Below the pieces are notes generated by a model. The model saw nothing but the letters and a program-made list of their open reading frames with translations, searched no databases and was not told the origin of the DNA. Below are positions 140 to 20,377 of a DNA stretch of 64,000 nt, one piece after another (position 1 is the first letter of the stretch; each line of letters starts with the position of its first letter). The stretch is from an uncultured Thermoplasmata archaeon (GTDB lineage Archaea > Thermoplasmatota > Thermoplasmata > RBG-16-68-12). The stretch is taken from positions 363,331-427,330 of the forward strand of contig CAVYJM010000011.1 of assembly GCA_963768855.1 (NCBI GenBank), in the 5' to 3' direction. Both the position numbers and the translations under genes were made by a program.

Positions 140-976
140 ATGAAGATCCTGATCGCGGACGACGATGAGCTGCTGCGGGAGCTCTTGGCGGAGTTCCTTC
201 GGGACCACGGCCACTCGGTCGATCTCGCGAACGATGGGACCGAGGCCCTCGAACGTCTGCGCACAGGCTCGTACGAGGTTGCGTTCCTCGACTACGCCAT
301 GCCTGGCATGTCCGGAATGGAGGTCATCCGCGCCGCGCGCGAGGCGGTTCCGCAAACGGCCTGCGTGATGATGACCGGGCACACGAGCGTCACGACGGCC
401 GTGGAGGCGATCAAGTCCGGAGCGAGTGACTTCGTCGCAAAGCCGCTCGAACCAGAGGCGATCGACCGCGTCCTGGAGAGCGTGAAGACGGCCACCCGAG
501 CGCGGGAGGCGGCCGGGGTACGCTCCCGCGCGAGCGGTCTCTCCCGCCAGCCCGAGATTCGCGCCGCCTTCCTCACCGACCACGCAGGCCTCCTCATCGC
601 CTCCCGGGTGGACCCGGAAGAGGGCATGGTGGACGGGGATCTCTTCAGCGCGACGCTCGACGTCATCCAGAACTTCATGCGCACTTCCTTCCCGGTGCTC
701 CGCGGCCGCTCCCTGTCGGCCATCCACCAGGGCGACTGCACCCTCGTGCTCGAGCCCGGCGACCAGGCGCTCCTCACGGTCCTCGTCCAGGGGCGGGAGA
801 CCGAGTCCCTACGGCGTCGGATGCGGAAGGTCCTGCGGGACTTCGAGGTCCAGAACGAAGGGCGACTCCAAGCCGGTCTCGTCCACACGGACGCGGTCCG
901 TGGAGCGGAGGAGCTGATGTCGAGGATCATGGTCAGCGGCGATTCGCACTCCGCCCGGCCACCGCGCGCCCCCTAG
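140..976 (+). CDS. Response regulator: REC domain fused to a longin/roadblock-like C-terminal domain
   Basis: REC motifs ILIADDD, FLDYAMPGMSG (phosphoacceptor Asp) and FVAKP. C-terminal DLFSATLDVIQNFMRTSFP domain is shared with the genes at 9878 and 11058. Confidence 0.85.
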   Translation: MKILIADDDELLRELLAEFLRDHGHSVDLANDGTEALERLRTGSYEVAFLDYAMPGMSGMEVIRAAREAVPQTACVMMTGHTSVTTAVEAIKSGASDFVAKPLEPEAIDRVLESVKTATRAREAAGVRSRASGLSRQPEIRAAFLTDHAGLLIASRVDPEEGMVDGDLFSATLDVIQNFMRTSFPVLRGRSLSAIHQGDCTLVLEPGDQALLTVLVQGRETESLRRRMRKVLRDFEVQNEGRLQAGLVHTDAVRGAEELMSRIMVSGDSHSARPPRAP

Positions 977-1971
977 AGGCGAAGGTGGAGAGCCGCGAGG
1001 ACCTCTTCGATCGGGTTCAGGATCGTCGTCGTGGCCCCGCCGGCGAAGAGCAGGCCGACGGCCCGGTTGGCGTCGTCGAGGATGAGGGATCCGCTGTCGC
1101 CGCCTCGGGACAGGATGTCGCCCACGACCTGGCGCCGGAAGAGGGCGGTCTTCCCGCCGTAGTCGACTTCGACGGAGGCGTCCAGCGCCGTGATCCGACC
1201 CCGCGTCAACCCGGTCGTGCGCCCGCTCTTCTTGACCCGCGTGCCGATTTCCGCTTGGGCGGTCCCCGAGACCCGCCCCACTTCGAGGATGTCCGGGGCC
1301 ACGAGGTCCGTTGCGAGCGGCCGGGCCAAGGCCGCATCGACCACGTTCGTGTTCGCGGATGGCAGGCGGCGCACCCCGAGCCCGATGGGCGCCAGGAGTG
1401 GTCCGAGCGCCCGTTCCAGGAGGCGTCCCAGTCCGCCCAGATCCTGCTCGCGAAACTGGATCGGGACGAACTCGACGAGCTCCGCGATCGCATCCTGCGG
1501 ACGCCCTCCGTCGTACGGACCGGGCTGAAGGATTCGGTCGCCCACCTTGGCCTCGTTGCTGTTTGCGAGCACGTGGTTGTTCGAGAGGATGACCGCCTCG
1601 CCCGACGTCCGCCGCGCGAGGACGCCCAGCGTCCCTGCGGTGACCCGCTCATGGGCGATGCTCACGCCGCCCGGCGCGGGCCGGACCTTGGCGGTGTGAC
1701 TCACCGCGAGCGTCTCGAGGAGGGGCAGGGCCCGGAACCGCCCGGTCTCCACGACGTCCGTCCGGATGCCGTCGAGGGCCTTCGGCACGAGGTCCCTCCG
1801 CCGCAGGCGGTCCTCGTCCTCCTTATGGTCCACATAGACGACGACGCACGGCTCGTCGCTCTCGCGACCTCCGGTGACCTTGCGGCCCACCGCCACGCCG
1901 ACCACGTTCGCGCGGTCGAAGAGCTCCGCCTCGTACGCGGCCTTCGCCTCGCGTGCCCCGTCGAAGGCCAT
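973..1971 (-). CDS. Trypsin-like (S1/Nal1-like) serine protease, no signal peptide
   Basis: Catalytic triad motifs SNNHVLA, VDAALA and GDSGS. N-terminal VVGVAVGRK...VVVYVDHK prodomain. Confidence 0.8.
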   Translation of the reverse strand: MAFDGAREAKAAYEAELFDRANVVGVAVGRKVTGGRESDEPCVVVYVDHKEDEDRLRRRDLVPKALDGIRTDVVETGRFRALPLLETLAVSHTAKVRPAPGGVSIAHERVTAGTLGVLARRTSGEAVILSNNHVLANSNEAKVGDRILQPGPYDGGRPQDAIAELVEFVPIQFREQDLGGLGRLLERALGPLLAPIGLGVRRLPSANTNVVDAALARPLATDLVAPDILEVGRVSGTAQAEIGTRVKKSGRTTGLTRGRITALDASVEVDYGGKTALFRRQVVGDILSRGGDSGSLILDDANRAVGLLFAGGATTTILNPIEEVLAALHLRL

Positions 1972-1975
1972 GCGA

Positions 1976-2266
1976 TCACTTCTCGTGGGAGCGGAACGCG
2001 CTGATCTCCAGGAGGCCTTCGCCGAGCTTCCCGCCCGCGGTGATCCCCGCGACCCGGACGATCATGTTCGCGACGAAGCCCAGGAAGATGCCGATGCCGT
2101 AGTACGCGAGCAGGTCCTTCGCGTACAGCCACGAGATCAGGCTCACGCCGAACCCGATCACGAAGAACGCGGCGAACGCGCCCCACTGGACCTTGTACCT
2201 CCGCACCGCGAAGAGGAGGAACCAGCCCAGGACCGAGCCCATGAGCAGGATGCCGACTTGGTTCAC
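1976..2266 (-). CDS. Small 3-TM membrane protein, apparently co-transcribed with the protease
   Basis: 96 aa with three hydrophobic segments. Stop codon lies 4 nt before the protease ATG. Confidence 0.7.
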   Translation of the reverse strand: MNQVGILLMGSVLGWFLLFAVRRYKVQWGAFAAFFVIGFGVSLISWLYAKDLLAYYGIGIFLGFVANMIVRVAGITAGGKLGEGLLEISAFRSHEK

Positions 2267-2502
2267 ATCGATCGAGATCCCTCCGGATGGGGTCGCCGAG
2301 TCGACGGACGTTGGATAAACGGACCTCCGCGGTTCTCATGCGCAGTAACCGCGGCGCGTCCGGCTGCCGATATCCGACAACCTCTGGCACCGCGTCTTGA
2401 GGCCCTCTCGCAACCCGCGCCGAAGCCGGCGCACTCCCTGCCGGTCAGTAGCGGCGTCCCGAAATCCTGAAGCTTTCTCAACATCCTCCGGGCGTCGGAG
2501 GG

Positions 2503-3594
2503 TTGCCCACGTCTGCATCCCGATTCTGTCCGAACTGCGGCCGGCCCCTGTCTCCCGAACACCGATTCTGCCCGGCGTGCGGAACCGCCACGGGAGGCGC
2601 GGCCGCGACGCCGATTGCCGCTCCGCCCGCGGCGCCTCGTCCCGCTTATCCGCTATACCCTGGGTATCCGCCGTATCCCGCCTATCCACCAGGCTACTGG
2701 CAGCCGCGCCGGATGGCAGACTTCTCCAACATGTTCTCCGGCGTCTTCAACGTCTGGACGAAGAACTTCCTCGAGTTCTTCGTCGTCTACGTCCTCCTGG
2801 CGGCCGTGATCCTGGGCCTCACCGACTTGGGCGGGATTCTCCTCCTGCACACGCCGGTCCTCAGCGGAGCATTCGGTGGGGTCACGACCGTGCCCAGTTT
2901 CACGAGCCTCGACCTCGGCGCGTTCGTTGCCTACGAGCTTCTCGTCGCCCTCGTCTCCTGGTTCTTCGGGAGCATCGCGATCGGGTCGATGACGGACTTC
3001 TCAGTGCGACGGTACCGGGGCGAGAAGGTCCGGCTCGGTGAGTCCTTCTCCCGCGGGTTTCAGAGGTTACCGAGCGTGCTCGGTGCCAACTTCCTCGTGA
3101 CCCTCGCGACGACCGGAGCGATTGTTCTCCCGCTCTTCGTCGCGCTCATGGGCGTCCTTTCGTTCGCCACATCGCCGGGCGTCGCGGTCGGCGTCCTGTG
3201 CGGCTTCGTCGTCGCGCTACCCTTCCTCCTGGTCCTCATCCTGTACCTGCTGCTCTCCCTCTTCCTGTACGGACCCGCGATTATGGTGGAGGGTGCGGCC
3301 GCCGTGGACAGCCTCCAGCGCAGCTGGACCCTCACGAAAGGGTACAAATGGTCCATCTTCGGGACCGCCCTGATTCTGGGCATCCTGTCGGTTCTCTTCT
3401 CGGTCGTCGCTTTCGTCGTTGGGCTCGTGGCGGCGAACGGACTGGTCACCCTGGTGGCTTCCATCCTGCTGAGCGGCCTTACGGGAGGCTGGTTCACGAT
3501 TCTGGCGGCGGTCGTGTACCACCTGATCATCCAGGATCAGAGGGCTGCGCCGTGGCCCTGGCCGTATCCGCCTGCGCCCGTCCCGCCGCGGTGA
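2503..3594 (+). CDS. Zinc-ribbon plus multi-pass membrane protein
   Basis: N-terminal CPNC-x10-CPAC, a Pro/Tyr-rich linker, then about 6-7 TM segments. TTG start. Confidence 0.75.
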   Translation: MPTSASRFCPNCGRPLSPEHRFCPACGTATGGAAATPIAAPPAAPRPAYPLYPGYPPYPAYPPGYWQPRRMADFSNMFSGVFNVWTKNFLEFFVVYVLLAAVILGLTDLGGILLLHTPVLSGAFGGVTTVPSFTSLDLGAFVAYELLVALVSWFFGSIAIGSMTDFSVRRYRGEKVRLGESFSRGFQRLPSVLGANFLVTLATTGAIVLPLFVALMGVLSFATSPGVAVGVLCGFVVALPFLLVLILYLLLSLFLYGPAIMVEGAAAVDSLQRSWTLTKGYKWSIFGTALILGILSVLFSVVAFVVGLVAANGLVTLVASILLSGLTGGWFTILAAVVYHLIIQDQRAAPWPWPYPPAPVPPR

Positions 3595-3634
3595 AGCCTG
3601 AAGGGTAAAGAACCCGGGCCGCGCTCTCAGCGAC

Positions 3635-4561
3635 GTGCCCTGCAACCGGTGCGACACGCCCGCGGTCCTCTTCATCCGGTACAGCGGCGCCCACCTGTGC
3701 GCCAAGCATTTCCAGGAATACGTGGAGCACCGCGTGAAGCAGGAGATCCGCCGCGAGCTTGACCTGACGGGCGACCCGACGACGATCGCGGTCGGGCTCT
3801 CCGGCGGCAAGGACAGCAGCACGACCCTCGTACTCCTCCATGAGTACCTGGGCCGCCGGCCGGACGTGACCCTCGCGGCGATCACGGTCGACGAGGGCAT
3901 CGCGGGCTACCGGCCTCCGAGCCTGGAGTCGGCGCGCGCCCTCTGCGAAAACCTGGGCGTCCCGCATCACGTGATTGCCTATCGGGAGAGCCAAGGATTC
4001 GAGATGGACCGAGTGGTCCGCGTCGATCCAGACGCGATCCCGTGCAGCTACTGCGGCGTCTTCCGTCGGGCCGCGCTGAACGAGAAGGCCAAGGAGATCG
4101 GCGCAAACTTCCTCGCGACGGGCCTCAACCTGGACGACACGGCCGAGTCCATCCTGATGAACGTGGCGCGGGGCGACGTGGAGCGCCTCGCCCGCCTCGG
4201 CCCGCACGAGCATGTCCAGCCCGGTCTCGTCCCGAGGCTCCAGCCCCTGCGGATGATCCCCGAGCTCGAGGTCTACCTGTACGCGTACCTGCGGAAGATC
4301 CCGTTCCACGATGCGGAGTGTCCGTATGCCGCGAGGGCGCAGCGCGGACGGTTCAAGGAGATCGTGCACCGCCTCGAGGCGGAGAGCCCGGGGACACGCC
4401 ACGCGATCGTGCGCGGCTACGACGAACTGAGGCCGGTTCTCCTGTCCGCGTGGCCTCCCGCGACCCTCCGCACGTGCACGAGTTGCGGCGAGCCGACAGT
4501 CCACGAGATGTGCAAGGCGTGCGAGCTCCGGCTGCACCTCGAGTCGCTCGCCGGTGCGTGA
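3635..4561 (+). CDS. tRNA 2-thiolation protein, NcsA/TtuA family (TIGR00269-like)
   Basis: PP-loop SGGKDS, CSYCGVFRR, and N- and C-terminal CxxC zinc sites. Confidence 0.9.
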   Translation: MPCNRCDTPAVLFIRYSGAHLCAKHFQEYVEHRVKQEIRRELDLTGDPTTIAVGLSGGKDSSTTLVLLHEYLGRRPDVTLAAITVDEGIAGYRPPSLESARALCENLGVPHHVIAYRESQGFEMDRVVRVDPDAIPCSYCGVFRRAALNEKAKEIGANFLATGLNLDDTAESILMNVARGDVERLARLGPHEHVQPGLVPRLQPLRMIPELEVYLYAYLRKIPFHDAECPYAARAQRGRFKEIVHRLEAESPGTRHAIVRGYDELRPVLLSAWPPATLRTCTSCGEPTVHEMCKACELRLHLESLAGA

Positions 4562-4573
4562 TCGTCACGCGCC

Positions 4574-5872
4574 TCAGCGGTGCAGCGCCATCGTCGCGGC
4601 GCGTGAGCGACCGACGGACGCGATGTCGACGCGAACCTTGAGCGCCGACTCCAGGTACGCCAGGTAGCGGCGCACCGGGGGCGGGAGCGCCCGCGAGCCC
4701 TTCTTCGCGATTCGGATCCAATCATCCTCAGGGAGTTCGGGCCAGCCCTTGAAGTCGCGGTACACGGGTTCGGCCTCCGCGAGGACCTTCGTCGAGGCGG
4801 GGAACTCCTTCACGGTCGTCCCGTGGTGGCGGTACGCCGTGCAGACCCGGATCCGGTCGAGACCGCCGAGCACGTCGAGCTTGGTCACCGCGAGACCCGT
4901 GAGCCCGTTCACCCGCACGGCCGCGCGGAGCATGACGAGGTCGATCCATCCGACCCGCCGCGGCCGATGCGTCGTCGTCCCGTACTCGCCTCCCCCGGTC
5001 TCTCGGAGATGGGTGGCCACGTCATCCTGTTGTTCCGTGGGAAAGGGCCCCGCGCCGACGCGGGAGGTGAACGCCTTCGCGACGCCGAGGATCGTGTCGA
5101 GGTATCGGGGGGAGACGCCCGCGCCGGTCGCCGCCGCCCCCGCGGTACAGTTGCTCGAGGTGCCGTACGGGTAGATGCCGTGGTCGATGCAGAGGAGCGT
5201 CCCCTGGGCGCCCTCGAAGAGGACCCGCTTGCGCCGCTTCAGCATCCCGTCCAGGAGCACGGAGGTGTCCGTGACGAAGGGCGCGAGCCTCTTGCCGTAC
5301 AGCGCGTACTCCGTGTAGATCGCCTCGAGGTCGAGGACGTCCGTGCCGCCGTAGGCCTGGATGAGCCGCTGCTTGATCGGGACGACGAGGGAGAGCCTCT
5401 CGCGCAGGGCGTCCGGATCCACGAGGTCGCACATCCGCAGGCCCCACTTGCCCACCTTGTCCTCGAACACGGGCGCGATCCCGCGGCGCGTGCTCCCCGC
5501 GGCGAGGCTGCCCTTGAGGCCCTCCTCGAGCCCGTCGAGGATCTTGTGGTACGGCATGACGACGTGCGCGCGGTCGGAGATGCGGAGGTTCTTCGCCGGA
5601 TGCCCGCGCGCCTCGACCTCGTCGATCTCCGCGAGGAGCTGCCCCGGTTCCACGACGACGCCGCCCGCGATCACGTTCAGGGTGCGGGGTCGCAGGATCC
5701 CGGACGGCATGAGGTGGAACGCGTAGAGCTCGTCGCCCACCTGGACCGTGTGCCCGGCGTTCGCTCCGCCCTGAAAGCGAACCACGACGTCGGCCCGCTC
5801 CCCGAGGAAGTCGATGATCTTCCCCTTGCCTTCGTCCCCGAATTGGCAGCCCAAGACTACCGTGGCGGGCAT
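4574..5872 (-). CDS. purA: Adenylosuccinate synthetase
   Basis: GCQFGDEGKGK, RFQGGANAGHT, FEGAQG and EYGTTTHRPRRVGW motifs. Start moved to ATG 5872. Confidence 0.97.
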   Translation of the reverse strand: MPATVVLGCQFGDEGKGKIIDFLGERADVVVRFQGGANAGHTVQVGDELYAFHLMPSGILRPRTLNVIAGGVVVEPGQLLAEIDEVEARGHPAKNLRISDRAHVVMPYHKILDGLEEGLKGSLAAGSTRRGIAPVFEDKVGKWGLRMCDLVDPDALRERLSLVVPIKQRLIQAYGGTDVLDLEAIYTEYALYGKRLAPFVTDTSVLLDGMLKRRKRVLFEGAQGTLLCIDHGIYPYGTSSNCTAGAAATGAGVSPRYLDTILGVAKAFTSRVGAGPFPTEQQDDVATHLRETGGGEYGTTTHRPRRVGWIDLVMLRAAVRVNGLTGLAVTKLDVLGGLDRIRVCTAYRHHGTTVKEFPASTKVLAEAEPVYRDFKGWPELPEDDWIRIAKKGSRALPPPVRRYLAYLESALKVRVDIASVGRSRAATMALHR

Positions 5873-6072
5873 GGCCGTCCTCGCCGAGAGGATGACCTGG
5901 GAGATAAGGAGCTTTCGCCCTCCATCGCCCGGCCGAGCGCCGCGGGTGAAAACGGAACATACTCCGGTCCGCCTACCGAATGTATTTATCCGCAGCAACC
6001 GTTCGCCGTCCCACACCGCTCGGGCCGGGGGGTGCGGGTTCCACGTCGGAGTACATACCACTGGACAGTCGA

Positions 6073-6768
6073 GTGCCCACGCGCGTCGCCGGCCTCGATG
6101 ACCGGCTCGGTGGCGGCATCCCCCGGGGTCACATCGTCCTCGTCGCCGGCCCGCCCGGATCGCTCAAGTCCACGTTCGCGTACCGGATCCTGTACCAGGA
6201 AGCGAAGGAGCACGGCGCCTCCTGCCTCTATCTCTCGATGGAGCAGAGCCGCGCCTCCCTCATCGCGCAGATGACCTCCCTGGGGATGGACCCGGAGCAG
6301 GTCAAGGGCGTCCACATCATCGACGTCCGCGCCCTCCGCAAGGAGATCGAGGACCTCCGGGAACAGCCGCGGTGGCTCCTCGGCCTGCGCCGCCAGCTCG
6401 GCCGCTACAAGGAGGAGATGGGCTGCGACCTCCTCGCGATCGACAGCCTCGACGCGCTCTACGCGCTCACGCCGATGGAGAACCCGCGCAACGAAGTGTT
6501 CCATTTCTTCGAGGAGTTGCGGGAGCTCCAGGCAACGACCTTCCTCGTCTCGGAGATGGGCCGCGACGACGTGCGCCTCTCGCACTACGGCGTCGAGGAG
6601 TTCCTCGCGGACACGATCGTCCACCTGCGCCTCCGGGAGATCGACATCGGGATGAGCACCTCCGTCCGCCGATACATCGGCGTGGTGAAGATGCGCGGCG
6701 TGGACCACGACCTCGACTACTATCCGTTGCTCATTGAGGACGGCGGCTTCGAGATCGTGTCGGAGTGA
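6073..6768 (+). CDS. RAD55/KaiC-like ATPase (single domain)
   Basis: TRVAGLDDRLGGGIP, Walker A GPPGSLKST, Walker B LAIDSLD and C-terminal VVKMRG. Start at GTG 6073 inferred. Confidence 0.9.
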   Translation: MPTRVAGLDDRLGGGIPRGHIVLVAGPPGSLKSTFAYRILYQEAKEHGASCLYLSMEQSRASLIAQMTSLGMDPEQVKGVHIIDVRALRKEIEDLREQPRWLLGLRRQLGRYKEEMGCDLLAIDSLDALYALTPMENPRNEVFHFFEELRELQATTFLVSEMGRDDVRLSHYGVEEFLADTIVHLRLREIDIGMSTSVRRYIGVVKMRGVDHDLDYYPLLIEDGGFEIVSE

Positions 6769-6789
6769 GACCACGCGCGGGGTGGGACC

Positions 6790-8541
6790 GTGAACCTCCT
6801 CGGTGCGGCTCTCTCCCTGGCGGCCTTGGGCGTCAGCGCGTTCCTCGCGGTGTACGTCCTCGGGATGCACCCGCGCTCGTTGCCGAGCCGCGCCTTCTTC
6901 GCCCTCATGATGACGTTCGTGTGGTGGGACGCCTGCGAGGCGGTCGAGCGGGCGCTGCCCGCCGGGACCACGCCGTCCGCGGCCTTCCCGTGGACTCAGG
7001 GCGTGTGGCTCGGGATCAGCGCGGTGCCCGCCGCCCTGATGCAGCTCGCCCTCGTGTACCCGGAGCGGCGACCCTGGTTCCGGCGCGAGTACCTCCCGCT
7101 GATCTACGCCCCCGTGGTCGGGTGGGCCTACCTGATCTTCGGGACCCGCCATCTGATCGCCGGTGTGGCGGAGGGGCCCCTCGGTCCCGGCGCAGTCGTC
7201 GGGGATAGCTACCTCCCCCTCGCTTCGGTCTACGCGGCCTGGTTCTACCTCAGCGTCGTCCTGTTCGCCGTGAACTGGTGGCGTCTGCGCGGGAGCAACC
7301 TCCGCCAGATGCAGGGCGTCGTCGTCCTCGGCCTGCTGGTCGGGTCCGTCCCCGCCGGCGTGACGGAGATCTTCTGGCCCCTGATCGACGGATTCTCGGT
7401 CCGCCTGGGGCTGGGGTCCCTCTATACGCTCGTCTGGTCCATCTTCCTCGCGTTCGCCATCGCGCGCTACCGCTACCTGGTCATCGAGCCCGTGACGGAG
7501 TCGCTCGGCGCGACGCGTGCCCGCCATCCGCTCTCCCGCGGGTTCAACTACCTCGTTCTGGAGCCGGGCCGGGCCGCGGGGATGGGGGCGTTCCGCGAGA
7601 TCGTCTCGACGACGCCGGGGTTGTGCGTGACGGGCCTCGCGCCGGCTCGGATCGCCGAGCGGTTCGGGCTCGAGCGGACGCCCGTCCTGTGGATCACGAC
7701 CGTCTCGGGCGAGGGGCGCACGGTCCGCCCGCAGGGGCTCGACTTCGAGCTCGTGCACACGGTCCTGAAGTTCCAGCGGGAGAACCCGGGGACCGCGATC
7801 CTCCTCGACGATCTGGACTACCTGGCCGCGGTGGACGGGTTCGAGGCGGTCGCCCGCTTCCTGAAGCGTGTCGCGAATCAGGCGAGTTCCTCGAGCGGCA
7901 CGCTCATCGTGACGGCGGGCCACGGTACGTTCACGGCGGAGCAGGTCGCGGTGCTCGGCGGTTGCGTCGACCATGTCCTCGACATCCCCGAGACCTCGAA
8001 CGGGACGCTCGCCCCTTCGCGGGGTCACGCCCTCCTCTTCGTGCCGCAACAGGACGTCGGGGGCGTCCTCGCCCTCGTCGGCGCCAGCCGCGGCCTGATC
8101 GTGACCACGGAGCACCCCGCGAAGGCCCGCCGCCGGCTCGGAGAAGGCTTCGACATCCTCTGGATCACGGAGCATCCGGAGGCAGGGATCCTCTGCGCGC
8201 GACCGACGGCGCTCGACACGGAAGCCCGCCGCGCCATCAGCAATCACCTTTCCGCCCATCCGGGATCGGCCGTCGTCCTAGCGGGGCTCGAGCAGCTGTC
8301 CCTCTTCGCGGACTTCCCCGCCCTCCTGTCCTTCGTGAAGGACACGGTCGACGCGGCGTCCCTCCGGGGAAGCCAGGTCATCGCCGCGGTCAGTCCGAAC
8401 GGGCTCCCCGCCCGGGAGGTCGCGATGCTCGCCCGCCGCTTGGATGTTCCCGCGGGCTCTTTTGTCAGGGGTTCTCCGGCTGGAGGGCTGTCCACAGCCG
8501 TTCCTGGAAGTCGAACTCCGATTCGAGGACCCGTTTCATGA
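6790..8541 (+). CDS. HisKA_7TM-like membrane sensor fused to two DUF835 (inactive KaiC-like) domains
   Basis: About 7 TM segments at the N-terminus. Two repeats of the VLWIT...P..L...ILLDDLDYL/VVLAGLEQL...GF pattern. Confidence 0.8.
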   Translation: MNLLGAALSLAALGVSAFLAVYVLGMHPRSLPSRAFFALMMTFVWWDACEAVERALPAGTTPSAAFPWTQGVWLGISAVPAALMQLALVYPERRPWFRREYLPLIYAPVVGWAYLIFGTRHLIAGVAEGPLGPGAVVGDSYLPLASVYAAWFYLSVVLFAVNWWRLRGSNLRQMQGVVVLGLLVGSVPAGVTEIFWPLIDGFSVRLGLGSLYTLVWSIFLAFAIARYRYLVIEPVTESLGATRARHPLSRGFNYLVLEPGRAAGMGAFREIVSTTPGLCVTGLAPARIAERFGLERTPVLWITTVSGEGRTVRPQGLDFELVHTVLKFQRENPGTAILLDDLDYLAAVDGFEAVARFLKRVANQASSSSGTLIVTAGHGTFTAEQVAVLGGCVDHVLDIPETSNGTLAPSRGHALLFVPQQDVGGVLALVGASRGLIVTTEHPAKARRRLGEGFDILWITEHPEAGILCARPTALDTEARRAISNHLSAHPGSAVVLAGLEQLSLFADFPALLSFVKDTVDAASLRGSQVIAAVSPNGLPAREVAMLARRLDVPAGSFVRGSPAGGLSTAVPGSRTPIRGPVS

Positions 8542-8692
8542 AGAGGACGATCTGACCCTGCGGGTCGAGGCCGTTCCGGGCGCAGTACTCGCGGAAGCCG
8601 TGGAGGACCTCCCCCTCGACGCGGATGTTGTACTGCACCTTGGCTTTCCTCGGCGGGGGCGATCCTCGGGGCGCCACGGCCCTCCGAATCAC
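8465..8692 (-). CDS. Ribbon-helix-helix transcriptional regulator
   Basis: VQYNIRV strand followed by two helices (GEVLHGFREYCARNG, PQGQIVLFMKRVLE). Start GTG 8692 or 8677. 3' end overlaps the DUF835 gene. Confidence 0.65.
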   Translation of the reverse strand: MIRRAVAPRGSPPPRKAKVQYNIRVEGEVLHGFREYCARNGLDPQGQIVLFMKRVLESEFDFQERLWTALQPENP

Positions 8693-8700
8693 ACCGCCTC

Positions 8701-8770
8701 TATATCTACATTCTGTAGCATTTGCTATCTTTTTGTTCAAATCGTAGCCATTAAGTAAGTGATAATCACA
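8701..8770. promoter_or_regulatory. AT-rich divergent promoter region with three palindromes
   Basis: CTACA-ttc-TGTAG (8706-8718), TAGCA-tt-TGCTA (8716-8727) and GTGAT-a-ATCAC (8759-8769) in an AT-rich patch between divergent genes. Confidence 0.6.
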
Positions 8771-8804
8771 TCTGGGAACGAGTGGGAGAGGAGGAGACCA
8801 TCGG

Positions 8805-9866
8805 ATGACCGAGGCGACCCCCGCCCGGAACCGGCCGGCGACCCCCGAGGAACCAGGACTGGAACCCCCTGATTCGACGGTATCCGGCTCCACCGACGCC
8901 GACTTGCAGGCGGACCTGCTTGAGTCGCTCGTCGAGTCGGCGGACTACGTGGACGTCCGGAAACCACTCCCGGCCCGGAGTGGAGGGGGCCTGCTACTGG
9001 CCACCCCCGAGGCGATTCGGGACGCCTTCGTCACCGCATGGGAGGGCCTCTCCCATTCTCTCCATCTGGAGATCAGCGCGGCGCGCGCGCTCGACGGCGT
9101 GAGGGACCTCGTGCTCTACGACATCCCGGATGGGACCCGCAGCACGCTCTCCGTGCCCGCGGCGACGGACGTCGAGACGGACGCCGGGCTGTATTGCCTC
9201 GCGCTCGTGCACACGCTCGCGTCGCTCGGAGCGGCGAGGACCGTCCTGCTCACGCACACGGTCTACAATCGCGAGCGCGGGCCCGAGGACACGAAGCGCT
9301 TCCTCGAGATCATGGCCCACGGCGTCGAACCCTTCCGCGGGTACACCCGGCGGCACAAGATCCGCGTGCACCTCCACGGGATTCACGAGGGCTACGAACT
9401 CGGCCCCCTCCTCTCGAAGGCCTTCCCCGTCCCTGCGGCCCCCAAGTTCGATGCCCATTTCCTCCTGGAGTACGAGGAGGAATGGTTCCTGACCCCGCAG
9501 GGTCGCGCCCTGCTGGAGATGCTCCCGGACATCGACGTCGTCGTGCGCCACACGAAGCTCCAGGTGAGCGGCGGCTGGATCCCGATGAAGATGCGCAAGT
9601 CCGCGTACGTGTACTCCCAGAACGGGAGCCTGAACTCGAACTGGTCCTACGACGAGTACGCCTCGATGGTCGCCGTGGCCTACCTGGCCAAGGTCCTGCA
9701 CTCCGGCGAGGCCCTGAGCAAGAAGTACGTCTCGATCGACGAGATCAAGGAGCGCTACCAGCAGCGGGAGATGCGGCTCCAGACACGGGTCGTGCGGCTC
9801 AGGGAGAAACCGCGGAAGCTCTTCGTCGTCGGCTCCGCGACCGGCCTCATCCAGGTCTACGCCTGA
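8805..9866 (+). CDS. Divergent cis-prenyltransferase-fold protein (putative terpenoid/prenyl synthase)
   Basis: Ordered UppS-like motifs: YDIPDGTR, VLLTHTVYNRERGPED..RFLEIM, IRVHLHG, PDIDVVVRH, AYVYS. Confidence 0.55.
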   Translation: MTEATPARNRPATPEEPGLEPPDSTVSGSTDADLQADLLESLVESADYVDVRKPLPARSGGGLLLATPEAIRDAFVTAWEGLSHSLHLEISAARALDGVRDLVLYDIPDGTRSTLSVPAATDVETDAGLYCLALVHTLASLGAARTVLLTHTVYNRERGPEDTKRFLEIMAHGVEPFRGYTRRHKIRVHLHGIHEGYELGPLLSKAFPVPAAPKFDAHFLLEYEEEWFLTPQGRALLEMLPDIDVVVRHTKLQVSGGWIPMKMRKSAYVYSQNGSLNSNWSYDEYASMVAVAYLAKVLHSGEALSKKYVSIDEIKERYQQREMRLQTRVVRLREKPRKLFVVGSATGLIQVYA

Positions 9867-9877
9867 GGCTGGCGCGG

Positions 9878-10996
9878 TCACGAGGCGGCCAGCAGGGCAG
9901 TGAGCAGGTCGTCGACGCCCCGGGCGTCTTTCGCCATGCCCCGCCAGTTGCCCAGCGCCTCCGCGTTCTCCTCTTCGAATTTCTCGACGGCCTCGATGAC
10001 CAGCCGACGGAGCTGGTCGTTCTCCTCCCCGTCGAGGACGAGGGTGAGGCAGGCATGCCGTCCGCGCTCCATGAGGAGCGTGTAGTTGCCATGGCGGATG
10101 GACTTGAGCCACTTCCCTCGCAGGGTCGGGAACGACGTGCGCATGAAGTTCGAGATCACGTCGAGCGTCGCGCTGAACGAGTCCGCGTCGATCATGCGTT
10201 CTTCCGGCTGGATTCTTGACCCGATCAGCGTGCCGTCGCTGAAGGTGAGGAAGGCGCCCTTCACATCGTAGGTCGAAGCCTTCTTCCGCCGGAGGGCGTC
10301 GTTCAGCCTCCGGCTGGCGGACGGGCTCGTCGCAAAGAAGATCAGGAATCCGGGGACGGCGAGAAAGGTCGAGAACAACGGAGGCTGGCCCGGGGAGTCC
10401 TCGAGGCCGAGCACCGCGTTCGAGAACGTGCCCGCCAGGAGGGCGGCGACGAAGCCAACGAGGATCGCCTCGATCCGATGCGCGAGTTTGGGACTCTGGC
10501 CGTGGACTTCGAAGACCGTCCGCCCGATTTGGGCCAGAGCGACCAGCCAGCACGCGGCAACAAACAGGAGCCACGGAAGATACCAATCCAGGTTGTACTG
10601 GGGGACCCGCGGGACCGGGCCCGGCGGGAGGGGCGGGAATCCGGCGAACATGTGTGTCGGGAACGAGACGATGAAGAACGCGGCGGGGACGAAGACCAGG
10701 AGCGACACACGGCGGAACCGGCCGTGGAACGCCATCCCATAGAGGAGCAGGAACACGCTCCCCACGGTGAGGCAGGTCAGGGAGACGCTGGCCTCGAGCG
10801 TCAGGTCCGCACCTGGGGGCATGTTGAAGAAGATCGCATCGCCCAGGGCGTACCCTCCCGTCAGCGTGCAGAGGAGGACGAAGAACAACTCGGTCCACGT
10901 CCGGTACCGCTCCTGATACGTGAGGTACCCCGCCAGGGAGAACCAGATCCCCGCACTGACCAGGGGGGCCCAGAACAGGAAGTCGTACGCGGACAT
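9878..10996 (-). CDS. 7TM membrane sensor with a C-terminal longin/roadblock-like domain
   Basis: About 7 TM segments, then FSATLDVISNFMRTSFPTLRG domain. Start at ATG 10996. Confidence 0.75.
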   Translation of the reverse strand: MSAYDFLFWAPLVSAGIWFSLAGYLTYQERYRTWTELFFVLLCTLTGGYALGDAIFFNMPPGADLTLEASVSLTCLTVGSVFLLLYGMAFHGRFRRVSLLVFVPAAFFIVSFPTHMFAGFPPLPPGPVPRVPQYNLDWYLPWLLFVAACWLVALAQIGRTVFEVHGQSPKLAHRIEAILVGFVAALLAGTFSNAVLGLEDSPGQPPLFSTFLAVPGFLIFFATSPSASRRLNDALRRKKASTYDVKGAFLTFSDGTLIGSRIQPEERMIDADSFSATLDVISNFMRTSFPTLRGKWLKSIRHGNYTLLMERGRHACLTLVLDGEENDQLRRLVIEAVEKFEEENAEALGNWRGMAKDARGVDDLLTALLAAS

Positions 10997-11057
10997 GCGG
11001 GTTCCTCGATTCTTCAGTCCCCGTTGTGTCTTAAGCATTTAGTGTTCGAGTTCGGCC

Positions 11058-12197
11058 TCATGTCTGCTCGAGGAGGGAGGTGAGCAGCCCGTCCGTCCCG
11101 ATCGCCTCGGACGGCATGCCTCTCCAGTCCGCGAGGACGGGCTGGTTGTCCCGCTCGTACCCCAGGAGGAGATCGCGCATGTGCCGGCGCAACTGGTCGT
11201 TCTCCTCTCCTTGTAGGATCACGGTCAGGTAGGCGTACCGGCCGCGTTCCATGACGAGCGTGTAGTCCCCGTGTTTGATCGCGCTCAGCGAACCGCGCAG
11301 GGTCGGGAAGGAGGTGCGCATGAAGTTCTGGATCACGTCGAGCGTCGCGCTGAACAGGTCCTGGTCGATGACCTTCTCCCCGGGTCGGACCTTCGCGCCG
11401 ATCAGGGTGCCGTCCGTGAAGATCACGAAGGCCGCCTTGATGTTGTAGCGGCTTGCCTTCCACCGCCGCACCGCAACGGAGAACCGCTCCGTGCTCAGAG
11501 GCGACAGGGTCACGACCGAGACGATTCCCGGGAGGACGAGCCCGGTGGAGAAGAGCGGGAGGAACTGGTAATTCCCGAGCCCGCGCGTCACGTTCGTCAG
11601 CCCTCCGAGGGCCAGGGCGAGGAGGGTCGAGACGAGCAGGCCGAGCATCCGGCGGCGGAGCTTCGTCGTCTGGTCCGCCACCTCCCGATAGGTTCGCAGG
11701 AGGAAGTACGCGGCGAGGCCGGCGTAGGCCACCACGCCCACCACCCAAGTGATGAACACGGTCTTGTCCCAGGAGCCGAGCCAGGGCGGCCCGAACAGCG
11801 CGCCGGGCGACGAGTCGAGGGGCTGGATCATGCCCAGGTTCGGGACGAGACCCGCCCACACGAGCGCGATGAGGCCGACCGCGGGCACGAACGCGAGCAG
11901 GTACCCGGTCCGCATCCTCGTGTAGAAGACGAGGGAGAAGAGGAAGATGAAGCAGACACTGAGGGTGAGGACGCTGAAGCCAAGCAGGGCGGCGGTTCTG
12001 GCTTGCATCTGGTCCGGCGAAGTGAAGAAGAGGACATCGGCAAAGGCGTACGCCCCGACGAAAATGCAGCCGGCGAGGAAGAACACCTCGGTCCACGTAC
12101 GATAGCGGTCGCGATAGACCTGGTAGAGGGCGAGGCCCCACCACACGCCGACCGTGGCGAGGGGCAACCACTGCTGGCCGGGGATGGGGAGGGCCAT
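11058..12197 (-). CDS. 7TM membrane sensor with a C-terminal longin/roadblock-like domain (tandem paralog)
   Basis: Clear paralog of 9878-10996 (shared RYRTWTE.FF and the C-terminal domain). Start at ATG 12197. Confidence 0.75.
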   Translation of the reverse strand: MALPIPGQQWLPLATVGVWWGLALYQVYRDRYRTWTEVFFLAGCIFVGAYAFADVLFFTSPDQMQARTAALLGFSVLTLSVCFIFLFSLVFYTRMRTGYLLAFVPAVGLIALVWAGLVPNLGMIQPLDSSPGALFGPPWLGSWDKTVFITWVVGVVAYAGLAAYFLLRTYREVADQTTKLRRRMLGLLVSTLLALALGGLTNVTRGLGNYQFLPLFSTGLVLPGIVSVVTLSPLSTERFSVAVRRWKASRYNIKAAFVIFTDGTLIGAKVRPGEKVIDQDLFSATLDVIQNFMRTSFPTLRGSLSAIKHGDYTLVMERGRYAYLTVILQGEENDQLRRHMRDLLLGYERDNQPVLADWRGMPSEAIGTDGLLTSLLEQT

Positions 12198-12307
12198 GGA
12201 AACCAAGGGGTAGTTTCCCAACCTTCGCAAGGTATGTTAAAGCCTTCGACGTGATTTTCCGTCGCAAGAAGAGCCCGGGGCGCGCAACGGCTAAGGCGGT
12301 GGGTCCG

Positions 12308-18367: not shown

Positions 18368-20377
18368 TCAGGGACCCGCGACCTCGGTCGGCAGGAGGAG
18401 GGAGAACGAGGCGCCCCGCCCCGGCTCGGACGCCAGTTCGATCCGCCCGCCGTGGGCCTCGGCGACGGCCTTCACGAAGAGCAGTCCGAGCCCGACCCCT
18501 TCGCCGTGCGGCTTCGTCGTGAAGAACGGCTGGAAGATCCGGTCCCGGTCCTGCGGCGAGATCCCCTTCCCCGTGTCCCGCACCGTGACGCACGCCCACT
18601 CCCCCTCGCGCCGCAGGGACACCGTCACGGTCCCCTTGTCCGTCGCCTGGTACGCGTTCTTGATCAGGTTGCCGACCGCCTGGGAGATCTTCAGCGCGTC
18701 GACGGTCATCGGGAGCGGCGCGTCGCCGACGTCGAGGTCAAGCGCCACGGCCGGTTTCCGGTAGGCGGCCACTTGCTCCGCGGCGGCCCGAAGCAGGGTC
18801 GCGAGGTCCGCCTCCTGCCGGCGGATCTCCGTGGACCGGGTGAAGGTCATGATTTCCTCGATGATGCGGGCCGCGAGGCGCCGCTGGGCGTCGATCCGGT
18901 CGAGGCGCTCCCTCGTCGCATCCTCCTGGGTCTGGCGCCGGATGCTCGCGGTCAGCAGGGAGATGTTCGTCAGGGGCGTATTCAGCTCGTGGGCCACGTA
19001 CGACGCGGTGCGGCCGATCGACGCGAGGCGCTCCGTCTCGAGGAGGGCCCGTTGAGCCTCCCGAAGGCTCGTGACGTCCACGAGGGTCGTGAGGATCGTC
19101 GGCTCGTCGGCGAGGGTCATCGGCTCGACGAACACGAGCGCGGTCCACGTCCGGCCCGACCTCGTCCGGAACCGTTCCTCGACGCCGCGAACGCTCTCGC
19201 CCCGTCGCACGGGCTCCAAGATCCGGTCGCGCTGCGCCGCGTCGGACCAGATTTCGAGTTCGGGCGACGGTCGTCCGAGGACCTCGTACGGGGCGTACTC
19301 GCAGGCGCGGAGGAAGCTCGCGTTCGCCTCGATCACCCTGCCGTCCGCGAGGCGCGTGACCGCAGCGGGCACCGGGCTGTTGTGGAAAGCCTTCGCGAAC
19401 CGCTCCTCGGCCTTCCTCCGCTCGCTCTCGAGCCGCTCCGACTCGAGGAACTGTCCCATCCGATCCCCCAGGTCGGCCATGAGCTCGAGGAGTTGGGGAT
19501 CCGGCTCGCGGGTGCTCCGGCTGAAGAAGACCATCACGCCGAGGACCCGCGGTCCGCGCCCGGTGATCGGGAAGGAGAGTCCCTGCCGCAGGCCGAGGTC
19601 CGCGCCGGATTGGCCGCGGGCGAAGTGCGTCCGGGGTGTCAGCTCCTCGAGCCACTCGGGGCGTCCGGTCGCCCAGGTGGTCCCCGGGATCCCGACCCCG
19701 CGCGGGACGGCGACGGTCCGGCTCGCGGCCTCGAACTCGGCGGAAGGGAACCCCGGGACGTGCCAGGCCGCCTGCCACCGCAGGCTCGTGCCCTCGGCGG
19801 ACGCGATCCACAGTTCCCCGTACTCCCAGCTCGCTTCCTCGCAGACCGCCTGGAGGAGGCGCGGGATTGCCTCCCGAGCCGGGGCCGAGTCGTTCAGGAC
19901 CCGGGTCACCGCGAACTCGGTCCGGAGGCGGCGCTCGAGCCGCAGCCGCTCCGTGATGTCGTGGCACAGCACGAGGCGCGCGCGGTGGTCGTCGAAGTCG
20001 ATCTCGCTCGCCAGGACCTCGACGTCGATGATGCTCCCGTCGCGCTTGAGATGCCTCCAGATCCCGATCGTCGTGGTGCCGCTGTCGAGCCGCCTGACCT
20101 CGTCCATGAGCGCGGGGATGTCCTCGGGCGGCCGGATGTCCTTGATCGTCATCCGGAGGAACTCGTTCCTCGAGTAGCCGTAGTGGGTGACCGCCGCGTC
20201 GTTGACGGCGAGGAAGTAGAGGGACTTGACATCGAACACCCACATCGGGAGCGGGTTCTTCTCGAACAGCAGGCGGTACGACTCCCTGATGAAGTGCATC
20301 CGACCGTTCCGTGGGCTCTCGGCTTCCCGCCGTTGGCTCGGGAACTCATCGGATGGTATGGGCTCGTTGCCGGGCAT
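18368..20377 (-). CDS. Cytoplasmic PAS-GAF-PAS sensor histidine kinase
   Basis: PAS (LFEKNPLPMWVFD), GAF, PAS, H-box AHELNTPLT, NLIKNA, DTGKG, FFTTK and GVGLGL. Confidence 0.93.
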   Translation of the reverse strand: MPGNEPIPSDEFPSQRREAESPRNGRMHFIRESYRLLFEKNPLPMWVFDVKSLYFLAVNDAAVTHYGYSRNEFLRMTIKDIRPPEDIPALMDEVRRLDSGTTTIGIWRHLKRDGSIIDVEVLASEIDFDDHRARLVLCHDITERLRLERRLRTEFAVTRVLNDSAPAREAIPRLLQAVCEEASWEYGELWIASAEGTSLRWQAAWHVPGFPSAEFEAASRTVAVPRGVGIPGTTWATGRPEWLEELTPRTHFARGQSGADLGLRQGLSFPITGRGPRVLGVMVFFSRSTREPDPQLLELMADLGDRMGQFLESERLESERRKAEERFAKAFHNSPVPAAVTRLADGRVIEANASFLRACEYAPYEVLGRPSPELEIWSDAAQRDRILEPVRRGESVRGVEERFRTRSGRTWTALVFVEPMTLADEPTILTTLVDVTSLREAQRALLETERLASIGRTASYVAHELNTPLTNISLLTASIRRQTQEDATRERLDRIDAQRRLAARIIEEIMTFTRSTEIRRQEADLATLLRAAAEQVAAYRKPAVALDLDVGDAPLPMTVDALKISQAVGNLIKNAYQATDKGTVTVSLRREGEWACVTVRDTGKGISPQDRDRIFQPFFTTKPHGEGVGLGLLFVKAVAEAHGGRIELASEPGRGASFSLLLPTEVAGP

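Follow-up and report, generated by a model that had tools for sequence, protein, structure and literature searches.

Which output is shared by a two-component response regulator and two membrane receptors that all end in the same domain? This question is raised by a stretch of 64,000 nucleotides (hereafter the window; positions 363,331 to 427,330 of contig CAVYJM010000011.1, C11 in the numbering used here) from a soil Thermoplasmata archaeon with a genome of 2.87 Mb (~68% G+C, 94% complete, 24 contigs), for which the closest database proteins carry the labels Thermoplasmata archaeon or Euryarchaeota RBG_16. The response regulator is encoded at 140-976 on the plus strand (278 amino acids, with a REC domain at residues 3-110, a linker and the shared C-terminal domain at residues ~131-270, i.e., nucleotides ~530-949). 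The two receptor paralogues, each with seven predicted transmembrane helices (7TM), are encoded on the minus strand at 9878-10996 (372 amino acids; seven-helix part at nucleotides ~10292-10996, C-terminal domain at ~9881-10291) and at 11058-12197 (379 amino acids; seven-helix part at ~11469-12197, followed by a short juxtamembrane helix and the C-terminal domain at ~11061-11468). The C-terminal domain of ~135 residues common to the three proteins is here given the working name X, and the proteins are referred to as REC-X and 7TM-X. Structure prediction suggests that X is a longin-fold domain, and the reading we favor, with a probability of roughly 0.5, is that it serves as a shared protein-docking output by which Rab-like GTPases encoded at other loci are coupled to phosphorylation and to membrane sensing.

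The three open reading frames (ORFs) with a common C-terminal domain, which a first-pass annotation had reported from the sequence alone, are present at these coordinates, and the alignment of their X domains extends over ~135 residues and has 48 invariant columns, among them those of the block FSATLDVIxNFMRTSFPxLRG. The earlier description of the domains as near-identical holds for this core motif of ~20 amino acids but not for the whole domain (41-60% identity), with 60% identity between the two 7TM copies and 41-45% between REC-X and the 7TM copies (48% in the alignment used for the tree described below). Each of the window copies scores far above chance against the family profile, with E-values from 4e-44 (REC-X) to 4e-54, and orthologues of REC-X were found at 42-97% identity. 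The full ORFs of the membrane proteins are longer (9878-11038 and 11058-12230, both on the minus strand); the internal ATGs at 10996 and 12197 were taken as the likely starts because the resulting lengths fit homologues of 370-380 amino acids.

In scans of the three proteins against Pfam (E ≤ 1) and NCBIfam, X matches nothing, and the longin-related families PF13774 (Longin), PF01217 (Clat_adaptor_s), PF04628 (Sedlin_N) and PF04099 (Sybindin) were found in none of the window proteins even at E ≤ 1. The fold was approached by structure prediction. A domain-only AlphaFold2 (AF2) model computed from 66 sequences reached a predicted local distance difference test (pLDDT) score of 86 and a predicted template modeling score (pTM) of 0.82, and assignment by DSSP gave the topology strand-strand-helix-strand-strand-strand-helix-helix-helix in two independent AF2 models (pLDDT 86 and 89), in agreement with the beta-beta-alpha-beta-beta-beta-alpha pattern guessed beforehand from the sequence and with the longin arrangement, in which a five-stranded sheet carries the C-terminal helices on one of its faces. 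In a Foldseek search against the PDB the top 19 matches are all longin domains, among them zeta-COP, the sigma and mu subunits of AP complexes, Mon1-Ccz1 and VAMP7, with E-values of ~1e-4 and template modeling (TM) scores of up to 0.67. Similarly, the exhaustive and Foldseek-independent VIA search of 48,161 chains returned Z-scores of 12.3 for the CPLANE longin subunit, 12.2 for VAMP7 and 12.0 for Sec22, followed by AP sigma, Ykt6, Mon1-Ccz1 and sedlin (Z 10-11) and the Lokiarchaeota Roadblock-Longin structure 8yqg (Z 10.0). The longin matches of this search span nearly the whole X model (residues ~9-136; ~120 aligned residues, root mean square deviation 2.5-4 Å), whereas Roadblock, MglB and MglC rank lower (Z 8-9), their coverage being limited to roughly the first 105 residues. 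The proposal of a longin/Roadblock-like fold is thus supported, with longin ranked first and Roadblock/MglB second, and X is, as predicted by these models, a strand-first, longin-type member of the longin/Roadblock group. As regards an assignment to Roadblock/LC7 itself, the models begin with two strands and end with helices, and no PF03259 match was found in the window copies; one divergent X paralogue elsewhere in the genome has a weak PF03259 match below the cut-off (E 1.4e-3).

Separate true Roadblock genes are present in the genome (7-9 genes). A classical Roadblock-Roadblock-GTPase cluster, i.e., two PF03259 genes beside a weak Ras-family match, is located at C6:941711-942856, so that this genome has true MglB-like proteins in addition to the longin-fold X family. 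The sole PDB profile match of the X alignment was to MotA (E 3.4e-4, running from helix 1 to the C-terminal helices); it was rejected as spurious because the aligned region of MotA is, as we take it, mostly helical and because MotA appeared in neither of the structure searches. A structure search of the ESM Atlas detected an X-like fold in REC proteins of Thermoplasmatota and in bacterial OmpA/BON (TM scores 0.81-0.83) and SH3_3 proteins.

The longin and Roadblock domains belong to the PAS-like fold class that includes many ligand sensors (PMC3521125), so that X might act as a cytoplasmic small-molecule sensor of the PAS/GAF/profilin-like kind and not as a protein-docking output. This appears very improbable, as PAS/GAF sensors are absent from the best 50 matches of both the Foldseek and the VIA search, X stands at the C-terminus of REC and receptor proteins, where outputs are located, and its gene context ties it to GTPase genes, as described in the following. 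Enzyme folds do not appear in the two lists of matches either.

X is not peculiar to the three window genes but is among the commonest signaling domains of this lineage. An exhaustive HMMER search of 1.8 billion representative sequences resulted in the identification of 1265 proteins matching X at E ≤ 1e-3, and all named members are from Thermoplasmata (ten X clusters checked). The genome studied here encodes 18 copies in 17 proteins, and X is present in 40 of 40 relatives of the order with 4-19 copies per genome. The architectures in the genome comprise REC-X, the two 7TM-X proteins, a fusion of a 7TM bundle, DUF835 and X, other multi-pass and single-pass membrane proteins, short soluble forms and surface proteins of 700-2400 amino acids. 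In relatives, X is moreover joined to PKD, CARDB, Ig-like and beta-propeller ectodomains, or inserted in AAA_16/TPR STAND ATPases. In four Thermoplasmata metagenome proteins of the latter type (P0219, P0252, P0264 and P0239) X lies within the AAA_16 domain of STAND-type ATPases with long TPR arrays, which represents a further, cytoplasmic use of the domain. In the membrane proteins in which the last predicted transmembrane helix precedes X, the domain starts 1-25 residues past this helix and is therefore a juxtamembrane cytoplasmic module.

A possible partner of this module is suggested by the genes found next to it. The genome contains 20 matches to the Ras family PF00071, 18 of them at 79-135 bits, and homologues of one of these GTPases are labeled as Rab family GTPase by NCBI. 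This protein, which is encoded beside an X gene, has intact G1-G5 motifs, including DVLGQ. Two X genes are each followed directly by a Ras-family gene of the same strand, with gaps of ~77 and ~320 nucleotides, and a third lies two genes away from a GTPase pair. The arrangement of a single-pass X protein and a GTPase behind it is kept as an orthologous pair in four of four loci of other species, at identities as low as 51%. Five genomes, each from a different one of five other families of the order, together encode 36 X proteins, and for 11 of these (~30%) a Ras-family gene lies within 2.5 kb of the X reading frame, compared to ~1.5 expected as estimated from gene density. Among the arrangements found there are that of a GTPase behind a single-pass X protein and that of a tandem pair of GTPases ahead of a giant X protein. 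The association also extends beyond the order: among 80 further genomes of the phylum, evenly sampled and at least 85% complete, 14 encode both X and Ras-family GTPases, one has X only (a weak match), one has Ras only (likewise weak) and 64 have neither; among the latter are all 13 genomes that were sampled from the same class but not from the order. Positive genomes of other classes also contain adjacent X-GTPase pairs, in same-strand, divergent and convergent orientation. The pattern thus recurs in several gene arrangements and in at least two separate clades.

Ras-family genes also occur in tandem arrays in this genome, three at C7:106450-108233 and two at C12:41751-42891, and similar arrays of three or four genes are found in relatives (G026 C9, G030 C4 and G025 C61).

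Since the genomic context recurs and small GTPases are bound in a common mode by longin and Roadblock domains (PMC3521125), a GTPase partner is the best-supported proposal for the X family as a whole, with co-occurrence and gene adjacency as its basis. The gene context suggests that X binds GTPases, be it as GEF (guanine nucleotide exchange factor), as GAP (GTPase-activating protein) or as effector, and we infer the same class of partner for the window subfamily as for its GTPase-adjacent paralogues. The small-GTPase partner that had been proposed for the three window proteins accordingly finds its support at the level of the family and not at the window genes themselves.

Several observations weigh against the extension of the GTPase link to the window. 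There is no Ras-family gene near the three genes, the nearest on the contig being ~100 kb away, nor near the 7TM-X orthologues in eight related loci. The counts of co-occurrence and adjacency overstate independence and significance because orthologous loci and related genomes are included, and in the Pfam scan the window copies of X showed no connection in sequence with a named longin or Roadblock family. In a maximum-likelihood tree of the 18 X copies of the genome, the window copies are separated from the GTPase-adjacent copies by a long stem (1.9 substitutions per site), so that the partner of this subfamily may have changed. Finally, the conserved neighbors of the 7TM-X genes, a KaiC-family ATPase and a 7TM-DUF835 receptor, together with the conserved 7TM-DUF835-X fusion point to a KaiC-type network. 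In the same tree, the three window copies form an exclusive clade with a support of 97/100, which supports the proposed convergence of the REC and 7TM inputs on a single module.

Eight related loci (46-98% identity) share the neighborhood of the 7TM-X genes, in the order DNA ligase, variable genes, one or two 7TM-X genes, a protein of 335-353 amino acids, a small ORF, a 7TM protein with two DUF835 domains, KaiC, PurA, a TtuA-like protein, further genes and a Nal1-like protease. Of these genes, the five from 7TM-X to KaiC form a core that is uninterrupted across the eight loci while the flanks vary. In the window the KaiC-family ATPase is encoded at 5980-6768 on the plus strand (PF06745 at E 6e-46; its true start may be later than 5980), directly upstream of the 7TM receptor with two DUF835 domains, i.e., inactivated KaiC-like domains, at 6790-8541 on the same strand (PF16927 at E 1.7e-9; PF05763 in two stretches, E 5.6e-31). 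The conserved protein between the 7TM-X and 7TM-DUF835 genes has 353 amino acids and no Pfam match (8805-9866, plus strand); its language-model features give a score of 0.82 to cis-prenyltransferases, which is a weak lead and no finding. The small ORF at ~8465-8677 on the minus strand, which runs opposite to the 7TM-DUF835 gene and overlaps its 3' end, has no Pfam match, and a gene of 65-86 amino acids is called at this position in all related loci. The 7TM-DUF835-X fusion is encoded elsewhere in the genome (C3:18226-19839; L009:277-1890) and unites on a single polypeptide the two alternative receptor outputs seen in the window; it is found at full length in at least ten genomes of the genus with 52-54% identity.

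These observations support an alternative, in which X of the window subfamily is an adaptor of the archaeal KaiC/DUF835 network, so that 7TM-X, 7TM-DUF835 and KaiC would form one membrane complex into which REC-X plugs a phosphorelay. Besides the uninterrupted block and the fusion, it is in line with the known archaeal response-regulator architecture REC-DUF835, by which X and DUF835 are placed in equivalent output positions (PMC5847659). However, the block lies inside a longer conserved run of housekeeping genes (DNA ligase, PurA, TtuA and RFC), so that shared descent can explain the synteny, and the KaiC and DUF835 genes are on the strand opposite to 7TM-X with another gene in between. Moreover, most X proteins of the genome have no DUF835 or KaiC neighbor, and in G029, a genome of another family, the gene for the 7TM-DUF835-X fusion directly follows an X-Ras-Ras cluster, suggesting that the two networks may be one. 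Taken as a replacement of a GTPase partner, the alternative is therefore rather doubtful in our view, but for the window copies of X the KaiC/DUF835 network is a serious rival to the GTPases, or may be an additional partner beside them.

The close relationship of the three copies can also be read in a different way. Roadblock and longin domains are typically dimeric, and a Lokiarchaeota longin dimer (8yqg) and the Mon1-Ccz1 longin heterodimer are among the VIA matches, so that X might mainly be a dimerization module by which the 7TM paralogues and REC-X form homo- and heterodimers and signal by a change of partner, without a separate NTPase. The window copies are mutual closest relatives in the tree, and tandem 7TM-X paralogues recur in several genomes, whereas some relatives encode a single 7TM-X at the locus. 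As pairing alone yields no output and a downstream element would still be needed, we consider dimerization as the main function unlikely.

Turning to the inputs, the N-terminal part of the protein at 140-976 is a REC domain (PF00072 at 99.3 bits; cut-off 30.2) that, as read from the translation, keeps D8/D9, D51, T79 and K101; judged by these residues, its phospho-acceptor site appears intact and the domain functional in form. No histidine kinase gene lies beside REC-X in the window or in close orthologues; in the case of a distant REC-X orthologue (42% identity), a HATPase_c kinase gene lies immediately ahead. Within the window, the kinase closest to REC-X is encoded at 18368-20377 on the minus strand; according to its Pfam matches it is a cytoplasmic histidine kinase of the architecture PAS-GAF-PAS-HisKA-HATPase_c, no regulator gene was noted alongside, and we infer that it is a candidate partner of REC-X. 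In total the genome contains eight HATPase_c matches, this kinase included, and nine REC matches, compared to 20 Ras-family GTPases and 18 X domains.

The naming of the two membrane proteins as 7TM receptors proved right as an architecture. The full-length AF2 model of the protein at 11058-12197, computed from 56 homologues (pLDDT 89), contains seven transmembrane helices (residues 12-28, 35-58, 63-92, 97-116, 145-173, 178-208 and 216-231), a short juxtamembrane helix and X, and the paralogue at 9878-10996 has the same architecture. The seven-helix architecture of the 7TM-X bundles is thus predicted by modeling, while the results on their membership in PF16927 (HisKA_7TM) are mixed: a precomputed match is present in 10 of 120 close homologues of 7TM-X, the window proteins themselves have none at E ≤ 1, and a BLASTP comparison of the 7TM part of 11058-12197 with that of the PF16927-positive protein at 6790-8541 detected no similarity (E 13). 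Homology to class A G-protein-coupled receptors (GPCRs) was also considered and rejected, as the Foldseek matches of the full-length model are at E 1.7e-3 or weaker with TM scores of 0.35-0.45 and, in our view, reflect a generic seven-helix bundle.

Under the GTPase reading favored here, X would be a cytoplasmic longin-fold docking domain used as output by sensors that are not related in other respects. In 7TM-X the domain is located directly below the last membrane helix, and therefore a ligand-induced change of the bundle would reposition or re-pair X, with the short juxtamembrane helix as relay. For REC-X, the equivalent of this ligand-induced change would be the phosphorylation of D51, by which X might be freed or re-paired. 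Their membership in a single exclusive subfamily makes it most likely that the three copies have a partner in common or pair with one another, and either way the membrane signal could be merged with the phosphorelay signal. The most likely class of partner would be one or more of the ~20 Rab/Ras-like small GTPases of the genome, for which X may act as a docking platform or as a subunit of a GEF or GAP, like eukaryotic longin domains and bacterial MglB. Taken further, this might amount to receptor-to-GTPase signaling in Thermoplasmatota analogous to GPCR/G-protein or longin-GEF/Rab systems, in which a receptor-borne longin platform directly loads or switches Rab-like GTPases and an X-bearing response regulator lets a phosphorelay act on the same switch, as a form of longin-GTPase signaling that predates or lies outside the Asgard-eukaryote lineage. 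We put this wider proposal forward tentatively, at less than even odds.

In the conserved gene order given above, REC-X comes after the Nal1-like protease. In the two REC-X loci examined, the gene lies between the Nal1-like protease and RFC, and in loci that reach RFC from the 7TM-X side RFC directly follows the protease. The trypsin-like protease of the window (973-1971, minus strand) has weak matches to the N- and C-terminal domains of plant NARROW LEAF 1 and is conserved beside REC-X in relatives. The longest ORF of the adenylosuccinate synthetase gene purA (4574-6061, minus strand) overlaps the KaiC ORF by ~80 nucleotides; because the Pfam match begins at residue 68 and homologues have 432 amino acids, the start is probably near 5870 and the overlap an artifact of ORF calling.

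Compared with known systems, X resembles most closely the longin platforms of eukaryotes and Asgard archaea (Mon1-Ccz1, sedlin and synbindin of TRAPP, DENN, Fuzzy-Inturned of CPLANE, AP sigma and mu, zeta-COP and 8yqg), with which it shares fold and topology over the whole domain and, here through genomic context, the tie to Rab/Ras-like GTPases. Unlike these, X has no detectable similarity to the Pfam longin families and occurs in Thermoplasmatota, and it is fused to 7TM bundles, REC, giant surface proteins and STAND ATPases, whereas the eukaryotic and Asgard longins are fused to SNARE, DENN or coat subunits. In Myxococcus, the profilin-like Roadblock/LC7 protein MglB regulates the Ras-like GTPase MglA, and the REC protein RomR feeds the same switch (PMC3521125; PMC3441718). 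The logic proposed for X is the same, but X begins with strands and ends with helices, as longin domains do, in contrast to the helix-first Roadblock, and is covalently part of the receptor or regulator, while MglB, MglA and RomR are separate proteins.

Archaeal response regulators with non-DNA-binding outputs have been described, such as REC-DUF835 with its inactivated KaiC domain and the thaumarchaeal NitrOD3, which was reported as Roadblock-related (Galperin et al., 2018; PMC5847659). REC-X is similar in that its archaeal REC domain leads to a putative protein-interaction output and not to one that binds DNA; it differs in that X has no Pfam model and is also found on 7TM receptors and many surface proteins, in Thermoplasmatota. 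In the bacterial Group 1 Rup neighborhoods a Ras-like GTPase gene lies beside the gene for a membrane protein that has a transmembrane helix, an unannotated cytoplasmic domain and an OmpA domain; the Group 1 Rup GTPases lack the catalytic glutamine of G3, and the system includes an output gene for cyclic di-GMP (c-di-GMP) or a kinase (Wuichet and Sogaard-Andersen, 2014; PMC4316618). These neighborhoods and the Streptomyces conservons share with the X loci a GTPase gene adjoining a membrane protein with an unannotated conserved cytoplasmic domain, and the X-like folds in bacterial OmpA/BON proteins mentioned above are a further likeness, in a comparison by structure alone. In contrast to Group 1 Rup, the X-adjacent GTPase keeps the catalytic glutamine in its DVLGQ motif and no c-di-GMP module is present. 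No match to the OmpA domain was found in the X proteins scanned.

As a summary, X is, according to structure prediction, a longin-fold domain used as a modular output of receptors and regulators in a non-Asgard archaeal phylum, and it represents a large unannotated family. The papers cited here see the longin domain as having been elaborated from the prokaryotic Roadblock in eukaryotes (and Asgard archaea), in connection with the emergence of membrane traffic under Rab control. Members of the X family form the output end of 7TM receptors, of surface receptors and of a two-component regulator, and across genomes X and Rab-like GTPases come and go together; with the Rab-like GTPase genes nearby, this suggests receptor-to-GTPase signaling outside eukaryotes and Asgard archaea. 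X fills part of a known gap in the outputs of archaeal signal transduction, and the soluble REC-X offers an easy entry point for biochemistry. If X binds GTPases, it would provide a simple prokaryotic model of receptor-coupled small-GTPase signaling that is open to experiment, and the view of where and when the partnership of longin domains and GTPases arose would need revision.

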